Source: a virus (Duplodnaviria > Heunggongvirae > Uroviricota > Caudoviricetes). From it: DNA of 10,951 nt. Each line of letters begins with the position of its first letter. Position 1 is the stretch's first letter. Where the stretch lies: the IMG/VR virus record IMGVR_UViG_2693429774_000016; one strand, 5' to 3'. Of the stretch, positions 436 through 9,420 are shown piece after piece. The position numbers were made by a program, and so were the translations under genes. The notes beneath the pieces are model-generated. The model was given only the letters and a program-made list of their open reading frames with translations, had not been told where the DNA came from and ran no database searches.

Positions 436-1962
436 ATGAAAAAAGCCATAGCATATATGCGATTTTCATCACCAAGTCAGATGTCTGGTGATTCATTAAA
501 CCGCCAGAGAAGGCTTATTACTGAATGGCTAAAGGTAAATAGTGATTATTACCTTGATACCGTAACGTATGAAGATTTGGGGTTAAGCGCATTCAATGGA
601 AAGCATGCACAATCAGGAGCTTTTTCGGAATTTTTAGATGCTATAGAACATGGTTATATATTGCCAGGGACTACATTGTTAGTTGAAAGTCTGGACAGAC
701 TTTCAAGAGAAAAAGTCGGTGAGGCGATTGAGCGTCTGAAATTGATTTTGAATCACGGTATTGATGTTATAACTCTTTGCGATAATACAGTCTATAATAT
801 TGACTCATTGAATGAGCCATATTCATTAATAAAAGCCATACTTATAGCACAAAGGGCAAATGAAGAAAGCGAGATAAAGTCAAGTCGGGTTAAATTATCA
901 TGGAAGAAAAAACGGCAGGATGCACTGGAGTCAGGCACGATTATGACGGCGTCTTGTCCGAGATGGCTCTCATTGGATGACAAAAGAACGGCTTTTGTTC
1001 CAGACCCCGACAGGGTGAAAACTATTGAGCTAATTTTTAAACTCAGGATGGAAAGGCGCTCATTGAATGCAATAGCCAAGTATTTAAATGATCATGCTGT
1101 AAAGAATTTCTCAGGAAAAGAAAGTGCATGGGGACCTTCTGTAATTGAAAAATCATTAGCGAATAAAGCTCTGATAGGTATATGCGTACCTTCATATCGT
1201 GCAAGAGGTAAAGGAATAAGTGAAATCGCTGGCTATTATCCCAGAGTCATATCAGATGATTTGTTTTACGCTGTGCAGGAAATTCGGTTGGCACCTTTTG
1301 GTATTAGCAATAGTAGCAAAAATCCTATGTTGATAAATCTACTTCGAACAGTTATGAAGTGCGAGGCTTGTGGTAATACCATGATTGTTCATGCGGTATC
1401 TGGAAGTTTGCATGGCTATTATGTTTGTCCGATGAGAAGACTGCATCGATGTGACAGACCATCAATAAAGAGAGATTTGGTTGATTATAATATCATTAAT
1501 GAGTTGCTTTTTAATTGTAGTAAAATCCAACCAGTTGAAAACAAGAAAGATGCTAATGAAACTTTAGAGTTGAAAATTATTGAGCTCCAGATGAAAATTA
1601 ATAATTTAATTGCTGCATTATCTGTTGCGCCTGAAGTTACCGCTATAGCAGAAAAAATCAGAGTATTAGATAAGGAATTACGAAGGGCTTCTGTATCATT
1701 AAAAACTTTGAAGAGTAAAGCGGTGAGTTCACTTGGTGATTTTCATGCTATTGACTTAACCAGTAAAAATGGGCGAGAGCTATGTCGTACACTTGCCTAT
1801 AAAACATTCGAAAAAATCATAATCAATACAGATAATAAAACCTGTGATATCTATTTTATGAATGGCATTGTTTTTAAACACTATCCTTTAATGAAAACAA
1901 TATCCGCCCAGCAGGCGATAAGTACTCTCAAATATATGGTTGATGGTGAGGTTTATTTTTGA
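436..1962 (+). CDS. ybcK: Large serine recombinase (resolvase/invertase-type catalytic domain plus zinc-ribbon recombinase domain); likely prophage integrase/recombinase
   Basis: 508-aa ORF with SD AGGTG 5 nt upstream of the ATG. N-terminus YMRFSSPSQ fits the serine-recombinase catalytic-Ser motif. A Cys-x2-Cys ... Cys-x6-Cys segment (CEACGNT...YYVCPMRRLHRCD) is typical of the zinc ribbon of large serine recombinases, followed by a coiled-coil-like region. Size and position directly after emrE match the K-12 DLP12 gene ybcK; the symbol is from memory. Confidence 0.85.
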   Translation: MKKAIAYMRFSSPSQMSGDSLNRQRRLITEWLKVNSDYYLDTVTYEDLGLSAFNGKHAQSGAFSEFLDAIEHGYILPGTTLLVESLDRLSREKVGEAIERLKLILNHGIDVITLCDNTVYNIDSLNEPYSLIKAILIAQRANEESEIKSSRVKLSWKKKRQDALESGTIMTASCPRWLSLDDKRTAFVPDPDRVKTIELIFKLRMERRSLNAIAKYLNDHAVKNFSGKESAWGPSVIEKSLANKALIGICVPSYRARGKGISEIAGYYPRVISDDLFYAVQEIRLAPFGISNSSKNPMLINLLRTVMKCEACGNTMIVHAVSGSLHGYYVCPMRRLHRCDRPSIKRDLVDYNIINELLFNCSKIQPVENKKDANETLELKIIELQMKINNLIAALSVAPEVTAIAEKIRVLDKELRRASVSLKTLKSKAVSSLGDFHAIDLTSKNGRELCRTLAYKTFEKIIINTDNKTCDIYFMNGIVFKHYPLMKTISAQQAISTLKYMVDGEVYF

Positions 1963-2073
1963 GTAATAATCACTTTTTCAACCGTGCTATAGTAAGAAAG
2001 TTAGGTAAGTACAATAAAATTATCTATCCTGAACGAAGCGTCCTGAGCTATGGTTTTACTATAGGGACTGCCA

Positions 2074-2373
2074 ATGGATGCTGGCGTTCTCGTTCTAGCA
2101 GTTCAACAATACCCAATCACAAAACAATTCACTGATAACAAACTTTGTGCACGTGCTTGGTTATGGCGAGCAGGTGATGTGATGTTAACTGCCTGCCAGA
2201 ACGTTACTCCACTACTTCAGGTTGCGGAGCACCGCGAAGCCGGCCGCTTTACTTCTATCGAGCAAGAATATCCCCAGATACTCAACAGAGCGCGAGCAAT
2301 CCTCGCCAGAGAAACGGCACATGTAAAATTCCAGCCGTGGCTGGATGATAAGTGGAGTCGAGTGTTACCATAA
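2074..2373 (+). CDS. Hypothetical protein (99 aa), unknown function; possibly phage cargo or a gene remnant
   Basis: ORF with a GGGA-type weak RBS and a good stem-loop plus T-run terminator 45 nt downstream. No family recognised from the sequence. Confidence 0.45.
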   Translation: MDAGVLVLAVQQYPITKQFTDNKLCARAWLWRAGDVMLTACQNVTPLLQVAEHREAGRFTSIEQEYPQILNRARAILARETAHVKFQPWLDDKWSRVLP

Positions 2374-2416
2374 TTCCGTCAGAATCTGTTCCAATAAAGT
2401 CACTAGTTAGAAATAC

Positions 2417-2456
2417 TGCCAGCATTCTACGATGACGGAAGTGCTGGCATTTTTTG
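2417..2456 (+). terminator. Rho-independent terminator candidate
   Basis: TGCCAGCA (2417-2424) pairs perfectly with TGCTGGCA (2442-2449), with extra TTC/GAA pairing inside, followed by TTTTTT at 2451-2456. Confidence 0.55.
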
Positions 2457-2631
2457 GGTAATATGCGAGTCCATTTCATAAAATACGGGTGCTGTAAACT
2501 GGACGATATAATCTAAAATATACCATTACCAGTAGCGTTCAAATCGCTATGTGCCGATACGGATAAAATTATATTGATTGTGCACATACCTTATTGGATA
2601 TTACTGAGGGGTATTTATATAAGGTGTAACG

Positions 2632-3141
2632 ATGATGTGGAACTTTGACAGTGCCGACTTAAGTGCAATAGCAGCAGGTATTTCTGCGTTTGGCACATTA
2701 GCCGCAGCGGGGTCGGCGCTTGCAAGTTGGTACACGTCAAAAAAAGCGCTGCAGCTACAAAATAGAGTTTACCTTTATGAGTCTTTAAAGGCTTGCGCTG
2801 AGAGAGCCAATTCATCAGCTAAAGATAAGCGCGGATCTGAATGGAGCGTTAATGATGCAGCGGATATCATCAGGTGCCTAGTACGGGCGATGGAGATCAT
2901 CAAGCAGGATAGCCAGCAGAAAGAAGGTAATCAGGCATTAATGTTGAAACAGTACTTTGTTAATCTGCTAATAATGGAACTGTACGAGGAAGTTCATAAC
3001 GGTGATGCGGCTGATTCTGTTTTTAAAAGTACGGAACCTACACAAGTACTTGATAACTTATGGAGCAAATGGCAGGAGGCTATAGCTTTTTTTGATATTT
3101 GGAATTACCCAGTTGCGACTGAGGAAGACTTGGCAGACTAA
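2632..3141 (+). CDS. Hypothetical protein (169 aa) with an N-terminal hydrophobic, probably membrane-spanning segment and an acidic helical C-terminal domain; unknown function
   Basis: SD AAGGTG 5 nt upstream of ATG 2632. Residues ~10-35 (LSAIAAGISAFGTLAAAGSALASWY) form a hydrophobic helix. No recognisable family. The K-12 DLP12 neighbours ybcL and ybcM, as I recall them, are not here. Confidence 0.6.
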   Translation: MMWNFDSADLSAIAAGISAFGTLAAAGSALASWYTSKKALQLQNRVYLYESLKACAERANSSAKDKRGSEWSVNDAADIIRCLVRAMEIIKQDSQQKEGNQALMLKQYFVNLLIMELYEEVHNGDAADSVFKSTEPTQVLDNLWSKWQEAIAFFDIWNYPVATEEDLAD

Positions 3142-3335
3142 TTTTCAGCACATTTGATTTCCAATAATCAACCAGCCATAATCATGCCATTGGGGCCTGA
3201 ACAACTCCGGTGACTTCTGCGCTAAACGGGGACGTTTATGCGCACATACAATCCAACCTCTCTTCTCCATTCACAGATGCAGAAATGCACCTGCGATATT
3301 TTGCATCCAGCGTTTGATCTCTGCGGAGGTGAAGC

Positions 3336-3590
3336 GTGAACCTCCCACAAGATGGTATCAAATTGCATCGCGGTAACTTCACCGCTATCGGTCGGCAGAT
3401 CCAGCCTTATCTGGAGGACGGCAAATGCTTTCGCATGGTGCTTAAACCGTGGCGCGAGAGACGCAGTCTTTCCCAGAATGCACTCAGCCACATGTGGTAC
3501 AGCGAAATCAGTGAATACCTCATCAGCAAGGGTAAAACGTTCGCCACTCCAGCTTGGGTATCCGCACCGGCGGGCGCGTGCTGGCGGTAA
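3336..3590 (+). pseudogene. ybcN: NinB/YbcN-family protein, 5' fragment, truncated by fusion to tail-fibre DNA
   Basis: GTG start with GGAGG 8 nt upstream. The first ~73 codons contain WRERRSLSQNALSHMWYSEISEY, resembling the conserved RSLDQN...W core of lambda NinB and the recalled K-12 YbcN. Homology ends at about 3552 and the reading frame runs into J-like sequence. Confidence 0.55.
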
Positions 3591-4537
3591 ACAGCCAGAC
3601 CCGGACGCTGACGCTCGACCGTGAAATCACGCTGCCATCTTCCGGCACCACGCTGATAAGCCTGGTTGACGGGCAGGGGAGTCCGGTCAGCGTGGAGGTT
3701 CAGTCCGTCACCGACGGCGTGAAGGTGAAAGTGAGCCGTGTTCCTGACGGCGTTGCTGAATACAGCGTATGGGGGCTGAAGCTGCCGACGTTGCGCCAGC
3801 GCCTGTTCCGCTGCGTGAGTATCCGTGAGAACGACGACGGCACGTATGCCATCACCGCCGTGCAGCATGTACCGGAAAAAGAGGCCATCGTGGATATTGA
3901 GAACACCCCTGACGGCATGCAGAGTCAGGTGCTGCTGGCGGCGGACAGGATTGCGATGGTTAATCCTGCGAATGGCAACACAAAACCGATGTTTGTTGGT
4001 CAGGGCGATCAGATATTCATGAACGACGTGTTCCTGAAACGCCTGACGGCCCCCACCATTACCAGCGGTGGAAATCCACCGGCATTTTCCCTGACACCGG
4101 ACGGAAAGCTGACCGCTAAAAATGCGGATATCAGTGGCAGTGTGAATGCGAACGCCGGGACGCTCAACAATGTCACGGTAAATGAAAACTGTACGATTAA
4201 GGGCATGCTGGAGGCGACTCAGGTCAGAGGTGACTTCGTTAAAGCTGTATCCAAATCATTCCCGAAACAGGCTGGTACGTGGGGTAATACGGAAACACCA
4301 AACGGGACGGTTACAGTCACCATCAGCGATGATCATAACTTTGACCGTCAAATCATTATTCCGCCCATTATCTTTAACGGAATAGCGTATAGCGATCCGG
4401 GAAGTGGTAATATTGGTGCTCATACGCACTCCGTTGCGATTGGCTCACATGGACACACCATCACCGTTAACGCTGCTGGTAACGCGGAAAACACCGTCAA
4501 AAACATCGCATTTAACTACATTGTGAGGCTTGCATAA
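3554..4537 (+). CDS. Lambda J-like host-specificity / tail-tip protein fragment: central segment plus C-terminal region with internal deletion and a divergent C-terminal tip; likely a remnant
   Basis: Translation contains [22 protein letters not shown]...[18 protein letters not shown]...[35 protein letters not shown] and later [56 protein letters not shown]. Both match lambda J segments as I recall them, but the intervening J sequence is missing and the last ~60 residues differ. No genuine N-terminus: the ORF begins at a TTG just after the ninB-like junction. Confidence 0.7.
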
Positions 4538-5454: not shown

Positions 5455-7437
5455 TTGCTCAACAAGTATAATGGAGTTCCCGTGGATACAGCAGAACATG
5501 ATGGCAAGTTTGCTTGGGCTAGTTTTTATGAGGCTTTTGCCAACGCGTTACTGACTTGGCGAAATCGTAGAGATGAATTAGTCAAAGGTATTCATCTAAT
5601 TGCCTCGGGTGTGGAAGGAATGTCCCATCTGCAGGACAAATCTATTATGGGAGAGATCTTTCCCTTAAAAGACATTTGTCCGTTTACTACTATGGGCTTG
5701 TTCAATCGTAACTTGACCGACAGCAATCGCAAAATTATTGCTGCCAAGCTAGCGAATTTGTTGGGCGTGAACGAACCGATTCCTGACTCCTTTGCCGGAA
5801 TCCCTCTGTTGAATAACCAAAAATCTTGGTTCTTTGGTTATGAAAAGTCACGCGACCCTAATGACATTGAATGCTTGTGGGAAATGTTCTCACAGGCAAT
5901 GATCTTTGCGGATAACCAGAATACTAACTCTGCAGACTTCACTGCCGCATATGACATCGCTTCTACAGTAATGAATGTCGGTTGGAATCTCACCATGGGG
6001 TTGTACTGGACCCGTCCTTGGTTCTACCCCACTTTAGATAGCCAGTCGCAGTATTACATTCAGACAGTGTTAAACATTAAGATCATTAAAAACGGGGCAA
6101 AAGGTCGCTGTAGTGGACAAAGTTACCTGAGTCTTATGCGGGCGCTGAACGAGGTCTTTACCCAACCAAACTATCCGGTTCATTCTTTCCCAGAACTTTC
6201 CTTATCAGCGTGGAATACAGATCTTAGCCAGTCTAAAGATGAGGTGGCAAATAGAACGTGGAAAGCCTCTTTACTGAATAAAATTAAGGCGTTATGCCTG
6301 AAAAAAAATGGCCCTTATTTCACTGCTTCGGAGTTGGAAGAAAACTACTTGGACGTATTCAAGGTAGAGCATCCTGAGAGCAAAACTGTTACAAGCTCAA
6401 TCTACTTTTATCTACAGAAACTATGCAATGATGATGAGTTAAAGTCCCTCGAGTCCGGAAATTATGAATACCTGAATTTTGAGAAAAACGAATCCCAGAC
6501 GATAACTGAGGAAACTGTCGAAGAGAGTGCGCTGTTGCCAAAACTCACCCACGTTCCTTATGACATCAGTCATCTGGTGCAGGATGGCTGTTTCTTGGAA
6601 GAGGCTAAGATCCAACTCACACTTCAGCGCCTGATCGACAAGAAAAACCTGATATTACAAGGACCACCCGGAACTGGAAAAACTTGGTTAGCGCGACGTC
6701 TGGCGTACTGCTTGATGGGAGAAAAAGCACCTGAGCGTATTAGCGCGGTGCAATTTCACCCGAACCTCTCTTACGAAGACTTTATTCGAGGCTGGCGTCC
6801 AGGTAAAGAAGGGCAATTGACGCTAATTGATGGACCTTTTGTAAATGCAATCAAAACTGCAGTCAATAATCCTACCTCGAAATATGTGGTGATAATTGAA
6901 GAGATTAATCGTGGCAATCCGGCGCAAATCTTCGGTGAAACACTCACGTTGATGGAAGCAGATAAACGCACGCCGACTGAGGCATTATCTCTTTCCTATC
7001 CTAAAAATGCTGATGAAAAAATATACATTCCTGAGAATCTATATATCATCGGTACGATGAATATTGCAGACCGCTCACTCGCACTACTTGACCTAGCGCT
7101 GCGCCGTCGTTTCGCGTTTATCGATCTAAAGCCAGCTTTTAATGACGCGTGGAGAAACTGGGTAAATTATAATTACGCAATTGATTTTGACATGTTAGCA
7201 TTCATCAAATCTCGACTGACGGTATTAAACGATATGCTGGCAAAAGATGTTACCTTAGGACCACAGTTTTGTATCGGTCACAGCTATGTCACCCCAGCTA
7301 TCGGCCAAAAAATCAACGATGCCCAGGCTTGGTATGAACAAGTCGTTGATACAGAGATCTGCCCTTTGCTCGCCGAATATTGGTTCGATGCTCCAAATAA
7401 AGTCGATGAAGCCAGAAAAGTGTTATTAGCAAAATGA
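5455..7437 (+). CDS. McrB-like GTPase subunit of a type IV modification-dependent restriction system, with an unrecognised ~400-aa N-terminal domain
   Basis: C-terminal ~260 aa align to recalled K-12 McrB: Walker A GPPGTGKT (6661-6684), Walker B-like VVIIEEINRGN, GTP-specificity motif MNIADRSLA, and RRRFAFIDL. The ORF begins at TTG 5455; GTG 5482 preceded by GGAG with a 5-nt spacer may be the true start. The N-terminal domain resembles nothing I recognise. Confidence 0.85.
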   Translation: MLNKYNGVPVDTAEHDGKFAWASFYEAFANALLTWRNRRDELVKGIHLIASGVEGMSHLQDKSIMGEIFPLKDICPFTTMGLFNRNLTDSNRKIIAAKLANLLGVNEPIPDSFAGIPLLNNQKSWFFGYEKSRDPNDIECLWEMFSQAMIFADNQNTNSADFTAAYDIASTVMNVGWNLTMGLYWTRPWFYPTLDSQSQYYIQTVLNIKIIKNGAKGRCSGQSYLSLMRALNEVFTQPNYPVHSFPELSLSAWNTDLSQSKDEVANRTWKASLLNKIKALCLKKNGPYFTASELEENYLDVFKVEHPESKTVTSSIYFYLQKLCNDDELKSLESGNYEYLNFEKNESQTITEETVEESALLPKLTHVPYDISHLVQDGCFLEEAKIQLTLQRLIDKKNLILQGPPGTGKTWLARRLAYCLMGEKAPERISAVQFHPNLSYEDFIRGWRPGKEGQLTLIDGPFVNAIKTAVNNPTSKYVVIIEEINRGNPAQIFGETLTLMEADKRTPTEALSLSYPKNADEKIYIPENLYIIGTMNIADRSLALLDLALRRRFAFIDLKPAFNDAWRNWVNYNYAIDFDMLAFIKSRLTVLNDMLAKDVTLGPQFCIGHSYVTPAIGQKINDAQAWYEQVVDTEICPLLAEYWFDAPNKVDEARKVLLAK

Positions 7438-8555
7438 CGACAATAACCGGGAGTGAGCAACATACAGCATCACGTATTCCCATGCGAAATATCTGGATGC
7501 TGATGCTGTACGCTTCAGATCTGTTTCGCCAGTTAGGGCGCAATCAGATCGCAGTAGAAGATAACCCAGCAGAAATCCCCGACCTGGTGGCGACAATCCT
7601 CCTTCATGAGATTACGCTGCGCCGACGTCGCAATTTAAATATGGGATACCAAACTTGTCATGCGGCCCTGAACCGGGTGAGAGGGCGCATTGACATACTG
7701 TATACTGCCAGTCATCAACTGCTGGAACGGGGACAGGTTGCCTGCCATTTTCAAGACATAACCCTCAACACCCCCCGAAATCGCTATGTTCGCTGTGCGT
7801 TAGAACGTCTGGCCTCAATCATAGTGAAACCGTCTTTGGCGGCAGATTGCCATTTTATGGCAATATCACTTCGCCGTGAGGGGATAAATGGAGGATATCC
7901 TGCCCCCCGCGAATTACCCTCAGTGTGGCGTTTTGGACGCCATGATGCCGCAGATAAACCGATGGTCGATGCCGCACGATTAGCTTTTGAACTGCTGATG
8001 CCGACCGAAGATCAAGGCCAATATCTTTTACCTGCGCCCTCAAATAACCTTTACTGGATGAGAAGACTATTTGAAAAAGGTATCGCTGGCTTATATCGTG
8101 TACACCTTGCCAAAACAACTTGGCAGGTCTCTGCAGGGAAAGAGCTGAAATGGGCGTTGAGCGATCAAAGTGCAGGTAGTGCAGAGATTTTCCCGACAAT
8201 GAAGTCAGACATTATTCTGGAACACAAGACTGCCCAGCGGCGTATTATTATCGATACCAAATTTAATTCGATTCTGACAAAGGGTTGGCATCGGGAGCAA
8301 TCACTACGTAATGGCTATATTTATCAGCTATATACCTACCTTAGAACACAGGAGAACAAGACGGATCCGCTTTCGCTCAATGCCGCTGGTCTTCTACTTC
8401 ATCCAGCTGTTGGCTATATGCTTAATGAGTATGTTGTCACTCAGGGACATAAGATCCATTTTGCTACAGTAGATATGACGGTAGATGCTAAAGCAATTAA
8501 AAAACAATTGCTGGCAATAGCCCATGATTGTGCAGGAGTCGCGGTTGATGACTAA
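7434..8555 (+). CDS. McrC-like PD-(D/E)xK endonuclease subunit of a type IV restriction system
   Basis: 373-aa ORF whose ATG overlaps the McrB-like stop (ATGA at 7434-7437). The N-terminal PMRNIWMLMLYA resembles K-12 McrC PVRNIYYMLTYAW. SDIIL ... IIIDTKF parallels McrC TDITI ... IVDAKYY, so the catalytic D ... D-x-K appears intact. Confidence 0.85.
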   Translation: MTTITGSEQHTASRIPMRNIWMLMLYASDLFRQLGRNQIAVEDNPAEIPDLVATILLHEITLRRRRNLNMGYQTCHAALNRVRGRIDILYTASHQLLERGQVACHFQDITLNTPRNRYVRCALERLASIIVKPSLAADCHFMAISLRREGINGGYPAPRELPSVWRFGRHDAADKPMVDAARLAFELLMPTEDQGQYLLPAPSNNLYWMRRLFEKGIAGLYRVHLAKTTWQVSAGKELKWALSDQSAGSAEIFPTMKSDIILEHKTAQRRIIIDTKFNSILTKGWHREQSLRNGYIYQLYTYLRTQENKTDPLSLNAAGLLLHPAVGYMLNEYVVTQGHKIHFATVDMTVDAKAIKKQLLAIAHDCAGVAVDD

Positions 8556-9255: not shown

Positions 9256-9420
9256 CTGCTGCGCCATATGGGTTGGACTGAAGCGGCTGACCTGATTGTT
9301 AAAGGTATGGAAGGCGCAATCAATGCCAAGACCGTAACTTATGACTTCGAACGTCTGATGGAAGGCGCTAAGCTGCTGAAATGTTCAGAGTTTGGTGAAG
9401 CGATCATCGAAAACATGTAA
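9256..9420 (+). pseudogene. icdC: Isocitrate dehydrogenase 3' fragment (icdC-type attachment-site duplication), last ~55 codons only
   Basis: Translation [54 protein letters not shown] matches the C-terminus of E. coli Icd as I recall it. The sequence upstream of 9256 is non-coding and AT-rich, so this is an isolated fragment. Its length, about 165 bp, equals the icd duplication known for e14-type integration. Confidence 0.85.

Follow-up and report, generated by a model that had tools for sequence, protein, structure and literature searches.

A conserved gene of PHROG 1779 and a decayed antirepressor-like fragment in the variable slot upstream of the ninB leader of a cryptic prophage

What does a prophage carry between its serine recombinase gene and its ninB-like remnant, and does that cargo serve the phage, the lysogen or neither? 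The question is raised by IMG/VR virus record IMGVR_UViG_2693429774_000016, a 10,951-nucleotide stretch that we analysed as a whole and refer to as the window, in which two open reading frames (ORFs), ORF1 and ORF2, occupy this interval. The initial annotation treated both as moron cargo, could name neither, and suggested that a small membrane-anchored protein in such a position might be a superinfection-exclusion (Sie) or abortive-infection (Abi) factor. The positions and lengths that it gave for the two ORFs are correct, and both ORFs exceed chance, ORF1 through a Pfam match (P22_AR_C, PF10548; E = 9e-13) and ORF2 through conservation under purifying selection. They are very different objects: ORF2 is a conserved accessory gene, found intact in lambda-like prophages, and ORF1 is the decaying leftover of an antirepressor-like gene. 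That ORF1 is a fragment and ORF2 a genuine gene is, in our judgement, practically certain; what ORF2 does is a matter of weighing several readings. The two ORFs and the cassette that holds them are as follows.

2632..3141, + strand: ORF2, an intact 169-aa member of PHROG 1779 (RefSeq WP_000990013.1, 'hypothetical protein')
2074..2373, + strand: ORF1, 99 aa, a 5'-truncated and nonsense-ended remnant of a Bro-N/P22AR_C ('Rha', Ant-like) gene that retains the P22AR_C domain only
2002..3152, no strand: cassette swapped in for ybcL-ybcM of K-12 DLP12, between the 3' flank of ybcK and the ninB/ylcH leader

ORF2 is an intact gene under purifying selection

Over its entire length (residues 1–169 of 169) ORF2 matches PHROG 1779, a family labelled 'unknown function' (1.2e-102). 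It is a full-length member of this PHROG (RefSeq WP_000990013.1 and WP_000017329.1), to which the distant homologues that we tested also belong, and the gene is already catalogued, both there and as a RefSeq hypothetical protein. The family has no assigned function. The one weak spot of the initial observation is the statement that neither ORF can be named, since Pfam recognises ORF1.

The gene is found in 207 of 5426 complete E. coli genomes, in 180 of these with a match over at least 80% of its length; carriers include the O104:H4 lineage, and most best matches are at least 99% identical. The family as a whole is small. A profile search of 1.84 billion proteins returned 35 representatives, none of them annotated, and a second, word-indexed profile search returned 26 relatives, none with a Pfam domain. 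A tblastn search of 50,697 phage records gave two near-identical matches only, both called 'hypothetical'. Where taxa could be identified, family members come from Enterobacteriaceae and relatives (Escherichia, Enterobacter, Klebsiella, Scandinavium, Phytobacter and Pantoea). The frame is intact in all 59 loci that were fetched, at 166–170 codons, and comparison with homologues of 70–75% identity gives a ratio of non-synonymous to synonymous substitution rates (dN/dS) of about 0.09 (0.086–0.095 where dS is measurable), with dN at 0.15–0.21 and dS saturated or at about 1.6–2.4. The GC content of the ORF2 region is 42–44%.

Searches for a named relative were negative. ORF2 has no match in Pfam or NCBIfam, a sequence-profile search of the PDB found none, and PADLOC-DB 2.0 contains no family at E ≤ 1 for either ORF. 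An hhalign comparison with a second 171-aa ORF in locus L060 was negative. The UniRef name of a sister allele (A0A0K3T8Z2) is DUF4760; this assignment was not reproduced, as hmmscan gives no DUF4760 hit for ORF2, for the allele of locus L007 or for 30 other members. Almost nothing has been published on DUF4760. In P22, NinA takes the analogous position before ninB, but with only 26 aa it is not a counterpart of ORF2. A literature search with the accessions, phage names and PHROG identifier found nothing.

A marginal helix, a helical domain and an acidic tail

The initial annotation gave the ORF2 protein an N-terminal hydrophobic helix and an acidic C-terminus, and both are present. The helix occupies residues about 10–34, is rich in Ala, Gly and Ser, and is only marginally hydrophobic: its best 19-mer scores 1.59 on the Kyte–Doolittle scale and has a Hessa sum of +2.7 kcal/mol. 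On the Hessa measure, 19-mers from the ORF2 family range from -1.2 to +4.3, true transmembrane helices from -6.5 to +1.7, and cytoplasmic controls from +7.5 to +9.1. Throughout the family the helix has an acidic N-flank and a basic C-flank, and in all members but one Ala, Gly and Ser make up 42–68% of it. The N-terminus that precedes it is short and acidic, with a conserved Trp and Asp. As the segment after the helix is basic, the protein would be oriented with its N-terminus out and its C-terminus in, if the helix inserts. A Sec signal peptide was rejected from the sequence, since the n-region is acidic and the basic residues come after the helix.

An all-helical domain follows the helix, with conserved ERAN, W-x-F-x(2)-AANI, P-D and FF motifs, and the extreme C-terminus ends in a conserved acidic peptide, T-[ED]-[ED]-D-L-x-D. 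Five acidic residues and no basic ones fall within the last 20 positions of ORF2, and the isoelectric point of the whole protein is 4.6. The protein contains no nuclease motif, and no His or Cys is broadly conserved. A second AlphaFold (AF2) model is confident, with a predicted local distance difference test (pLDDT) score of 83.6 and a predicted template-modelling (pTM) score of 0.70; ORF2 gave no fold match and has no detectable structural relatives.

One family member departs from this plan. At 5998–6510 of locus L050, protein P0002 begins with a scrambled, non-hydrophobic N-terminus (IIWGFDGSDWSCNGG...) and continues into a normal C-terminal domain, as would result from a compensated frameshift, or from an error in sequencing, within the part that encodes the helix.

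The cassette lies in a variable slot

By blastn, K-12 matches the window in only two stretches, 1–2001 (95%) and 3153–3560 (92.6%), and the bounds of the cassette are placed exactly at 2002 and 3152 because K-12 homology stops at 2001 and resumes at 3153. The initial annotation gave the gene order of K-12 DLP12 as ybcK followed by ybcL and ybcM; the K-12 record bears this out, with the order ybcK-ybcL-ybcM-ylcH-ybcN. The cassette is thus missing from K-12 DLP12, and elsewhere the slot holds other cargo, the presence/absence pattern expected of a moron. The junction of ybcK with truncated rha (1990–2110 of the window) is present in 522 E. coli genomes, against 207 that match ORF2. After the same rha terminator, strain 600468 carries a 260-aa protein of PHROG 6544, itself a PHROG of unknown function, and in strain CU42ET-1 the slot is occupied by an antisense alpha/beta hydrolase (the two loci are L069 4083–4865 and L068 3821–4864). 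In phages of the PhiR26_1 type the ren–ninB interval contains SNIPE/PD-lambda-1 (PADLOC, 6e-198), a defence nuclease whose cleavage of injected phage DNA has been demonstrated by experiment (PMC13190303).

From these varied occupants we conclude that the site directly 5' of the ninB leader, between the replication genes (P, ren) and the leader in lambda-like prophages, is a variable cargo position, and that the wider ren–ninB interval holds at least one proven defence gene. ORF2 keeps a near-constant distance to what follows it, about 195 bp to ninB/ybcN in most of the close relatives fetched and about 250 bp in L052–L054 and L057; in L055 and L056 no ninB was detected downstream of the family gene. 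The gene on its 5' side varies: full-length Rha, truncated Rha, a DUF551 protein or unrelated hypothetical proteins. An obligate two-gene module of Rha and ORF2 was rejected on this ground, as the upstream neighbours differ among lineages.

A promoter-like element within a hairpin precedes ORF2

Three features lie in the short stretch before the gene.

2574..2602, + strand: promoter-like element private to ORF2, with a -35 TTGATT (2574–2579), a 17-nt spacer and a -10 GATATT (2597–2602)
2586..2614, + strand: inverted repeat ATACCTT...GGGGTAT around the -10 element, with a fold of -12.4 kcal/mol
2621..2626, + strand: Shine-Dalgarno (SD) sequence AAGGTG of ORF2, as read from the sequence

The SD that had been reported for ORF2 lies 5 nt before the ATG at 2632 and 8 nt before a second ATG at 2635. 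The latter may be the start codon in use, because the first ATG is replaced by ATA in several alleles (PhiR5_1 and L042–L048). The promoter-like element is preceded by an A/T-rich stretch, and its TTG and GATATTA are invariant (alignment A4) across loci whose ORF2 proteins are just 60–75% identical and whose flanks differ. The repeat also recurs across loci, as ATACCyT...rGGGTAT with the -10 in its loop, in one copy per locus; a multi-site operator was rejected on account of this single copy. When transcribed from upstream, the repeat at 2586–2614 would form a weak terminator-like hairpin.

A subgroup (L007, L010 and L011) shows the same arrangement in another form, with a perfect TATAAT in the 5' arm of a 9–11 bp hairpin directly before the ATG. 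The 3' arm contains GAGGGG, which we read as an SD, and in L007 and L010 a U-run follows the hairpin. A hairpin that overlaps the promoter-like element is found in all ORF2 subgroups. An Rfam search over 1900–3700 gave no match. On the 3' side, strong intrinsic terminators stand right after the family gene in L052–57, L060, L062 and L071; in the window, the next terminator-like hairpin past ORF2 is the one at 3278–3295, within the ninB leader.

As to the label of moron cargo, it suits ORF2, with its presence/absence polymorphism, variable slot, promoter-like element, predicted surrounding terminators, low GC content and marginal anchor, and does not suit ORF1, which is a decayed fragment. In architecture ORF2 is probably an autonomous, insulated moron, as far as its sequence layout can tell.

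Possible roles of ORF2: exclusion, lytic accessory function or lysogenic conversion

Our tentative proposal, which we favour without placing great trust in it, is that ORF2 is a prophage-expressed, membrane-tethered exclusion or abortive-infection protein. Transcripts that read through from upstream would form the hairpin, leading to termination or to masking of the SD, and those from the private promoter would start inside the hairpin and would be translatable. The product would sit in the inner membrane with its short acidic N-terminus outside and its helical domain of about 135 residues, together with the acidic C-terminal peptide, in the cytoplasm. Made in the lysogen, it would interfere with a superinfecting phage. 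It could act at DNA entry; alternatively, after the cytoplasmic domain has sensed a phage product, the helix, which is rich in small residues, could form oligomers and impair the membrane. A further-reaching version is possible, if rather doubtful: that PHROG 1779 is a new single-gene anti-phage system, membrane-tethered and without a structural relative, restricted to the lysogen by a promoter buried in a terminator hairpin, and sensing or blocking incoming lambdoid phages by means of its helical domain and acidic C-terminal peptide. If true, PHROG 1779 would mark the 'pre-ninB' slot, including that of the O104:H4 outbreak lineage, as a defence hotspot beside SNIPE.

Several observations weigh against exclusion or abortive infection. 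In the PHROG, PADLOC and hhalign comparisons ORF2 resembles none of the known Sie, Abi or defence families: hhalign against lambda SieB and RexB and P22 SieA and SieB gives probabilities of 0.04–0.2%, and no PHROG annotated as Sie appears at E ≤ 1. The helix is a marginal membrane anchor that may not span the membrane. The promoter-like element matches the consensus at only 8 of 12 positions and was not reported by a promoter scan, and its conserved bases could instead serve as a site for a protein or for RNA. In the deposited records of PhiR26_1 and PhiR5_1 the known defence genes are named and the ORF2 counterpart is left 'hypothetical'. (From the phage names and the annotated defence genes alone we suspect Brenes and Laub 2025 as the source of the PhiR phages.) The family gene is always oriented with the early operon, and in L062, which holds a distant homologue, its start codon overlaps with the stop codon of a theta/Hot-like gene, suggesting that it is translated together with early lytic genes.

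The last two points lead to a serious rival, namely that ORF2 is an early lytic accessory protein, made with the delayed-early genes under N-type antitermination, and not an exclusion factor expressed in the lysogen; it might, for instance, use its helical domain and acidic tail to tether or sequester at the membrane a factor of replication, recombination or defence. We regard this as a real possibility that falls short of being the likely answer. It is to be taken seriously because the gene always reads with the early operon and because distant homologues lie within early operons, which fits a role in the lytic cycle equally well. Close relatives are always placed between the replication genes and ninB, in operon orientation; some distant homologues occupy early-left arms between N or exonuclease genes and xis/int, and others are found between replication and nin genes. 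A DNA_pol3_theta (Hot-like) gene stands ahead of the family gene in L064/65, and in L062/L063 the family gene overlaps such a gene at its stop codon. The conserved acidic C-terminal peptide resembles a docking motif. Set against this are the private promoter-like element and insulating hairpin, conserved directly upstream of ORF2, the terminators directly after the gene in several lineages, and upstream neighbours that are unrelated between lineages. In addition, ORF2 is sporadic (about 3% of genomes) among early regions that are otherwise near-identical, and it is therefore dispensable for lytic growth.

The theta-type neighbour is an observation in its own right. In Pantoea and in another prophage remnant (L062 5762–6540 and L064 5804–6519) the family gene comes directly after a DNA polymerase III theta (Hot-like) gene, an adjacency that may hint at a link to replication.

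A second alternative, which we consider unlikely, is that ORF2 is a lysogenic-conversion gene outside phage–phage conflict, with a role in envelope, stress or colonisation in the manner of ybcL, bor or lom. The location in the slot of K-12 ybcL-ybcM would fit such a role, as would the moron-like layout and the wide spread of relatives in commensal and pathogenic E. coli, O104:H4 among them. Speaking against it, the bulk of ORF2 would be cytoplasmic and not exposed at the surface if the helix inserts as its flanking charges suggest, the family is confined to prophage early regions, and ORF2 has no similarity to a known virulence or stress family in Pfam or NCBIfam.

The weakest alternative, that ORF2 is a non-functional relic that looks intact only through the young age of the region, is close to refuted: the near-identity of most E. 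coli copies does make their intactness uninformative when E. coli is taken alone, and near-identical alleles give dN/dS values of 0.26–0.79 from very few changes, yet homologues at 44–76% identity in Enterobacter, Scandinavium, Phytobacter and Pantoea have kept length, motifs and frame, with the low dN/dS given above.

ORF1 is what remains of an antirepressor-like gene

Two further features frame the first ORF of the cassette.

2066..2100, + strand: junction zone, where nucleotide similarity to full-length rha sets in, with a 1-nt indel (alignment A1, columns 620–660)
2417..2455, + strand: intrinsic terminator of the ancestral rha gene, a 10-bp GC-rich stem with U6 (-19.4 kcal/mol, z = -2.96)

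The Pfam match of ORF1 covers residues 15–85 with 48.6 bits, against a cut-off of 22.4, and ORF1 also matches PHROG 7640 and Ant-type PHROGs. At the equivalent position, the intact lambdoid phages PhiR26_1 and PhiR5_1 carry a full-length 'Rha' of 202 or 249 aa, and ORF1 is the 3' part of that gene at 83–88% identity. These full-length neighbours consist of Bro-N, at residues about 17–100 or 52–147, followed by P22AR_C, and ORF1 aligns solely to residues about 100–202 of the 202-aa PhiR26_1 protein. In-frame stops lie directly upstream of the ORF1 ATG. All loci that carry emrE-ybcK are truncated at nearly the same offset (-546 to -550), and this near-identical cut points to a single ancestral event.

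Decay has also set in at the other end. In the window, a TAT-to-TAA change ends ORF1 nine codons ahead of the ancestral stop; the counterpart in the O104:H4 lineage is interrupted by another nonsense codon (GAA to TAA) and is listed in the PGAP annotation as a pseudogene with an 'internal stop', and the 90% cluster of ORF1 holds many additional shortened forms. ORF1 thus lost its 5' half at the emrE-ybcK junction and is accumulating nonsense mutations. The initial annotation had counted it as a cargo gene and had named a disrupted frame in close relatives as the sign of a decayed fragment; such disruption is what close relatives show, and the cargo claim does not hold for ORF1. The terminator assigned to it does exist, with a stem at 2418–2427/2438–2448 and a T-run to 2455. 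It is the old rha terminator, and is conserved in PhiR26_1 and PhiR5_1.

That ORF1 still functions by itself as a P22AR_C-domain protein, perhaps with a regulatory or dominant-negative effect, is very improbable. The ORF is complete, with an ATG, a weak GGGA upstream and the old terminator, and forms of 99 and 107 aa are common enough to make up PHROG 7640 and a 69-member cluster on more than 1000 contigs. Against this stand the distinct nonsense mutations in the window and O104:H4 lineages, the many shorter variants and the loss of the Bro-N domain. The dN/dS of ORF1 against full-length alleles is low (0.12–0.18), and we attribute it to divergence between ancestral full-length alleles, because the window and O104:H4 copies differ by one non-synonymous and no synonymous change.

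For about 64 nt (2002–2065), which separate the last of the K-12 homology from the onset of rha homology, no origin was identified; this stretch accompanies the junction across hundreds of genomes.

The ninB leader and the rest of the window

The remaining features of the window are listed in order.

436–1962: ybcK-type large serine recombinase
3142..3335, + strand: conserved ninB/ylcH leader, the right border of the cassette and not cargo (alignment A7, with K-12 and diverse loci)
3154–3182: promoter-like TTGATT-N17-CATAAT of the leader, with a TTGAT..ATCAA palindrome
3188–3212: leader hairpin with the invariant loop GCCUGAACA and stems that covary between loci
3219–3243: second leader hairpin with a GGGA loop, whose 3' arm contains the ATG of the ylcH-like ORF
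3238–3339: 33-aa ylcH-like ORF
3278–3295: terminator-like hairpin in the leader
3336–3590: truncated ninB
Further contents: tail-tip and tail-fibre-assembly fragments, a McrBC-like pair and an icd' duplication

The leader, of about 190 nt, is common to K-12 DLP12 and to every ninB-linked locus of the ORF2 family that we aligned. It has no match in Rfam, and at this position lambda has the tR2 terminator only. The ninB-like remnant reported downstream is genuine: it matches PHROG 72 at 1.7e-21, over residues 1–75 only. The ninB/ybcN match ends after residue 75, with K-12 homology reaching 3560, and a J-like tail-tip fragment begins near 3554. The region 3336–3600 is a deletion junction, at which Q, lysis, head and most tail genes were removed.

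Taken as a whole, the window represents a cryptic prophage of mosaic make-up, located at the icd (e14) site. E. coli ML35 has a related arrangement, in which the segment 1963–3335 is 100% identical to the window; the ML35 element has intE/xisE at its left end and a DLP12-like ren-emrE-ybcK block in its middle. At 5455–8555 the window encodes an intact McrB-family AAA+ protein (660 aa) and McrC (373 aa), adjoining the icd' duplication (9268–9420). The two form a type IV restriction pair, a piece of cargo with which the e14-site element ends, and in strain ML35 the same mcrB is interrupted by IS3.

Significance and comparison with known systems

ORF1 is a case of ordinary prophage decay. ORF2 is of modest but real value, as a conserved 169-aa gene that is easily cloned and that occurs in E. 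coli lineages of clinical relevance. Should it block phage, it would add a new family and a new hotspot to the catalogue of prophage defence; if it acts in the lytic cycle, it would represent a new early accessory function. The promoter inside a hairpin offers a compact, testable example of a moron insulated from its host operon.

In comparison with P22 Ant and the antirepressor-like proteins of the BRO family, ORF1 has the P22AR C-terminal domain, but it lacks Bro-N and the last nine codons, and is a pseudogene fragment, not a functional member. For ORF2, the slot itself gives the first comparison: ybcL-ybcM of K-12 DLP12 sit in exactly the same place, between ybcK and the ylcH/ybcN leader, but are unrelated to the cassette, with a periplasmic YbcL and a YbcM annotated in K-12 as a putative DNA-binding transcriptional regulator.

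Lambdoid morons that have a private promoter and terminator and are active in the lysogen include rexAB and sieB of lambda, sieA and sieB of P22, and gp15 of HK97. ORF2 resembles them as a small accessory gene between conserved phage genes, with a promoter-like element, predicted flanking terminators and a hydrophobic N-terminal segment, dispensable and sporadic in occurrence. It differs from them in having no sequence or profile similarity to any, in the predicted cytoplasmic location of its bulk, should the helix insert with its N-terminus out, and in that it is not known to exclude phage. The sequence of P22 SieA, which contains several long hydrophobic stretches, is plainly more hydrophobic (Hessa sum of -1.3, against +2.7 for ORF2), whereas ORF2 has one marginal helix. 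SNIPE/PD-lambda-1 is like ORF2 in its place, the variable ren–ninB interval of the same PhiR26_1-type phages, and in its plan of an N-terminal membrane anchor and a cytoplasmic domain. It is unrelated in sequence, carries DUF4041 and T5orf172 nuclease domains, and has a strong transmembrane helix, with a Hessa value of -6.5, where that of ORF2 is marginal.

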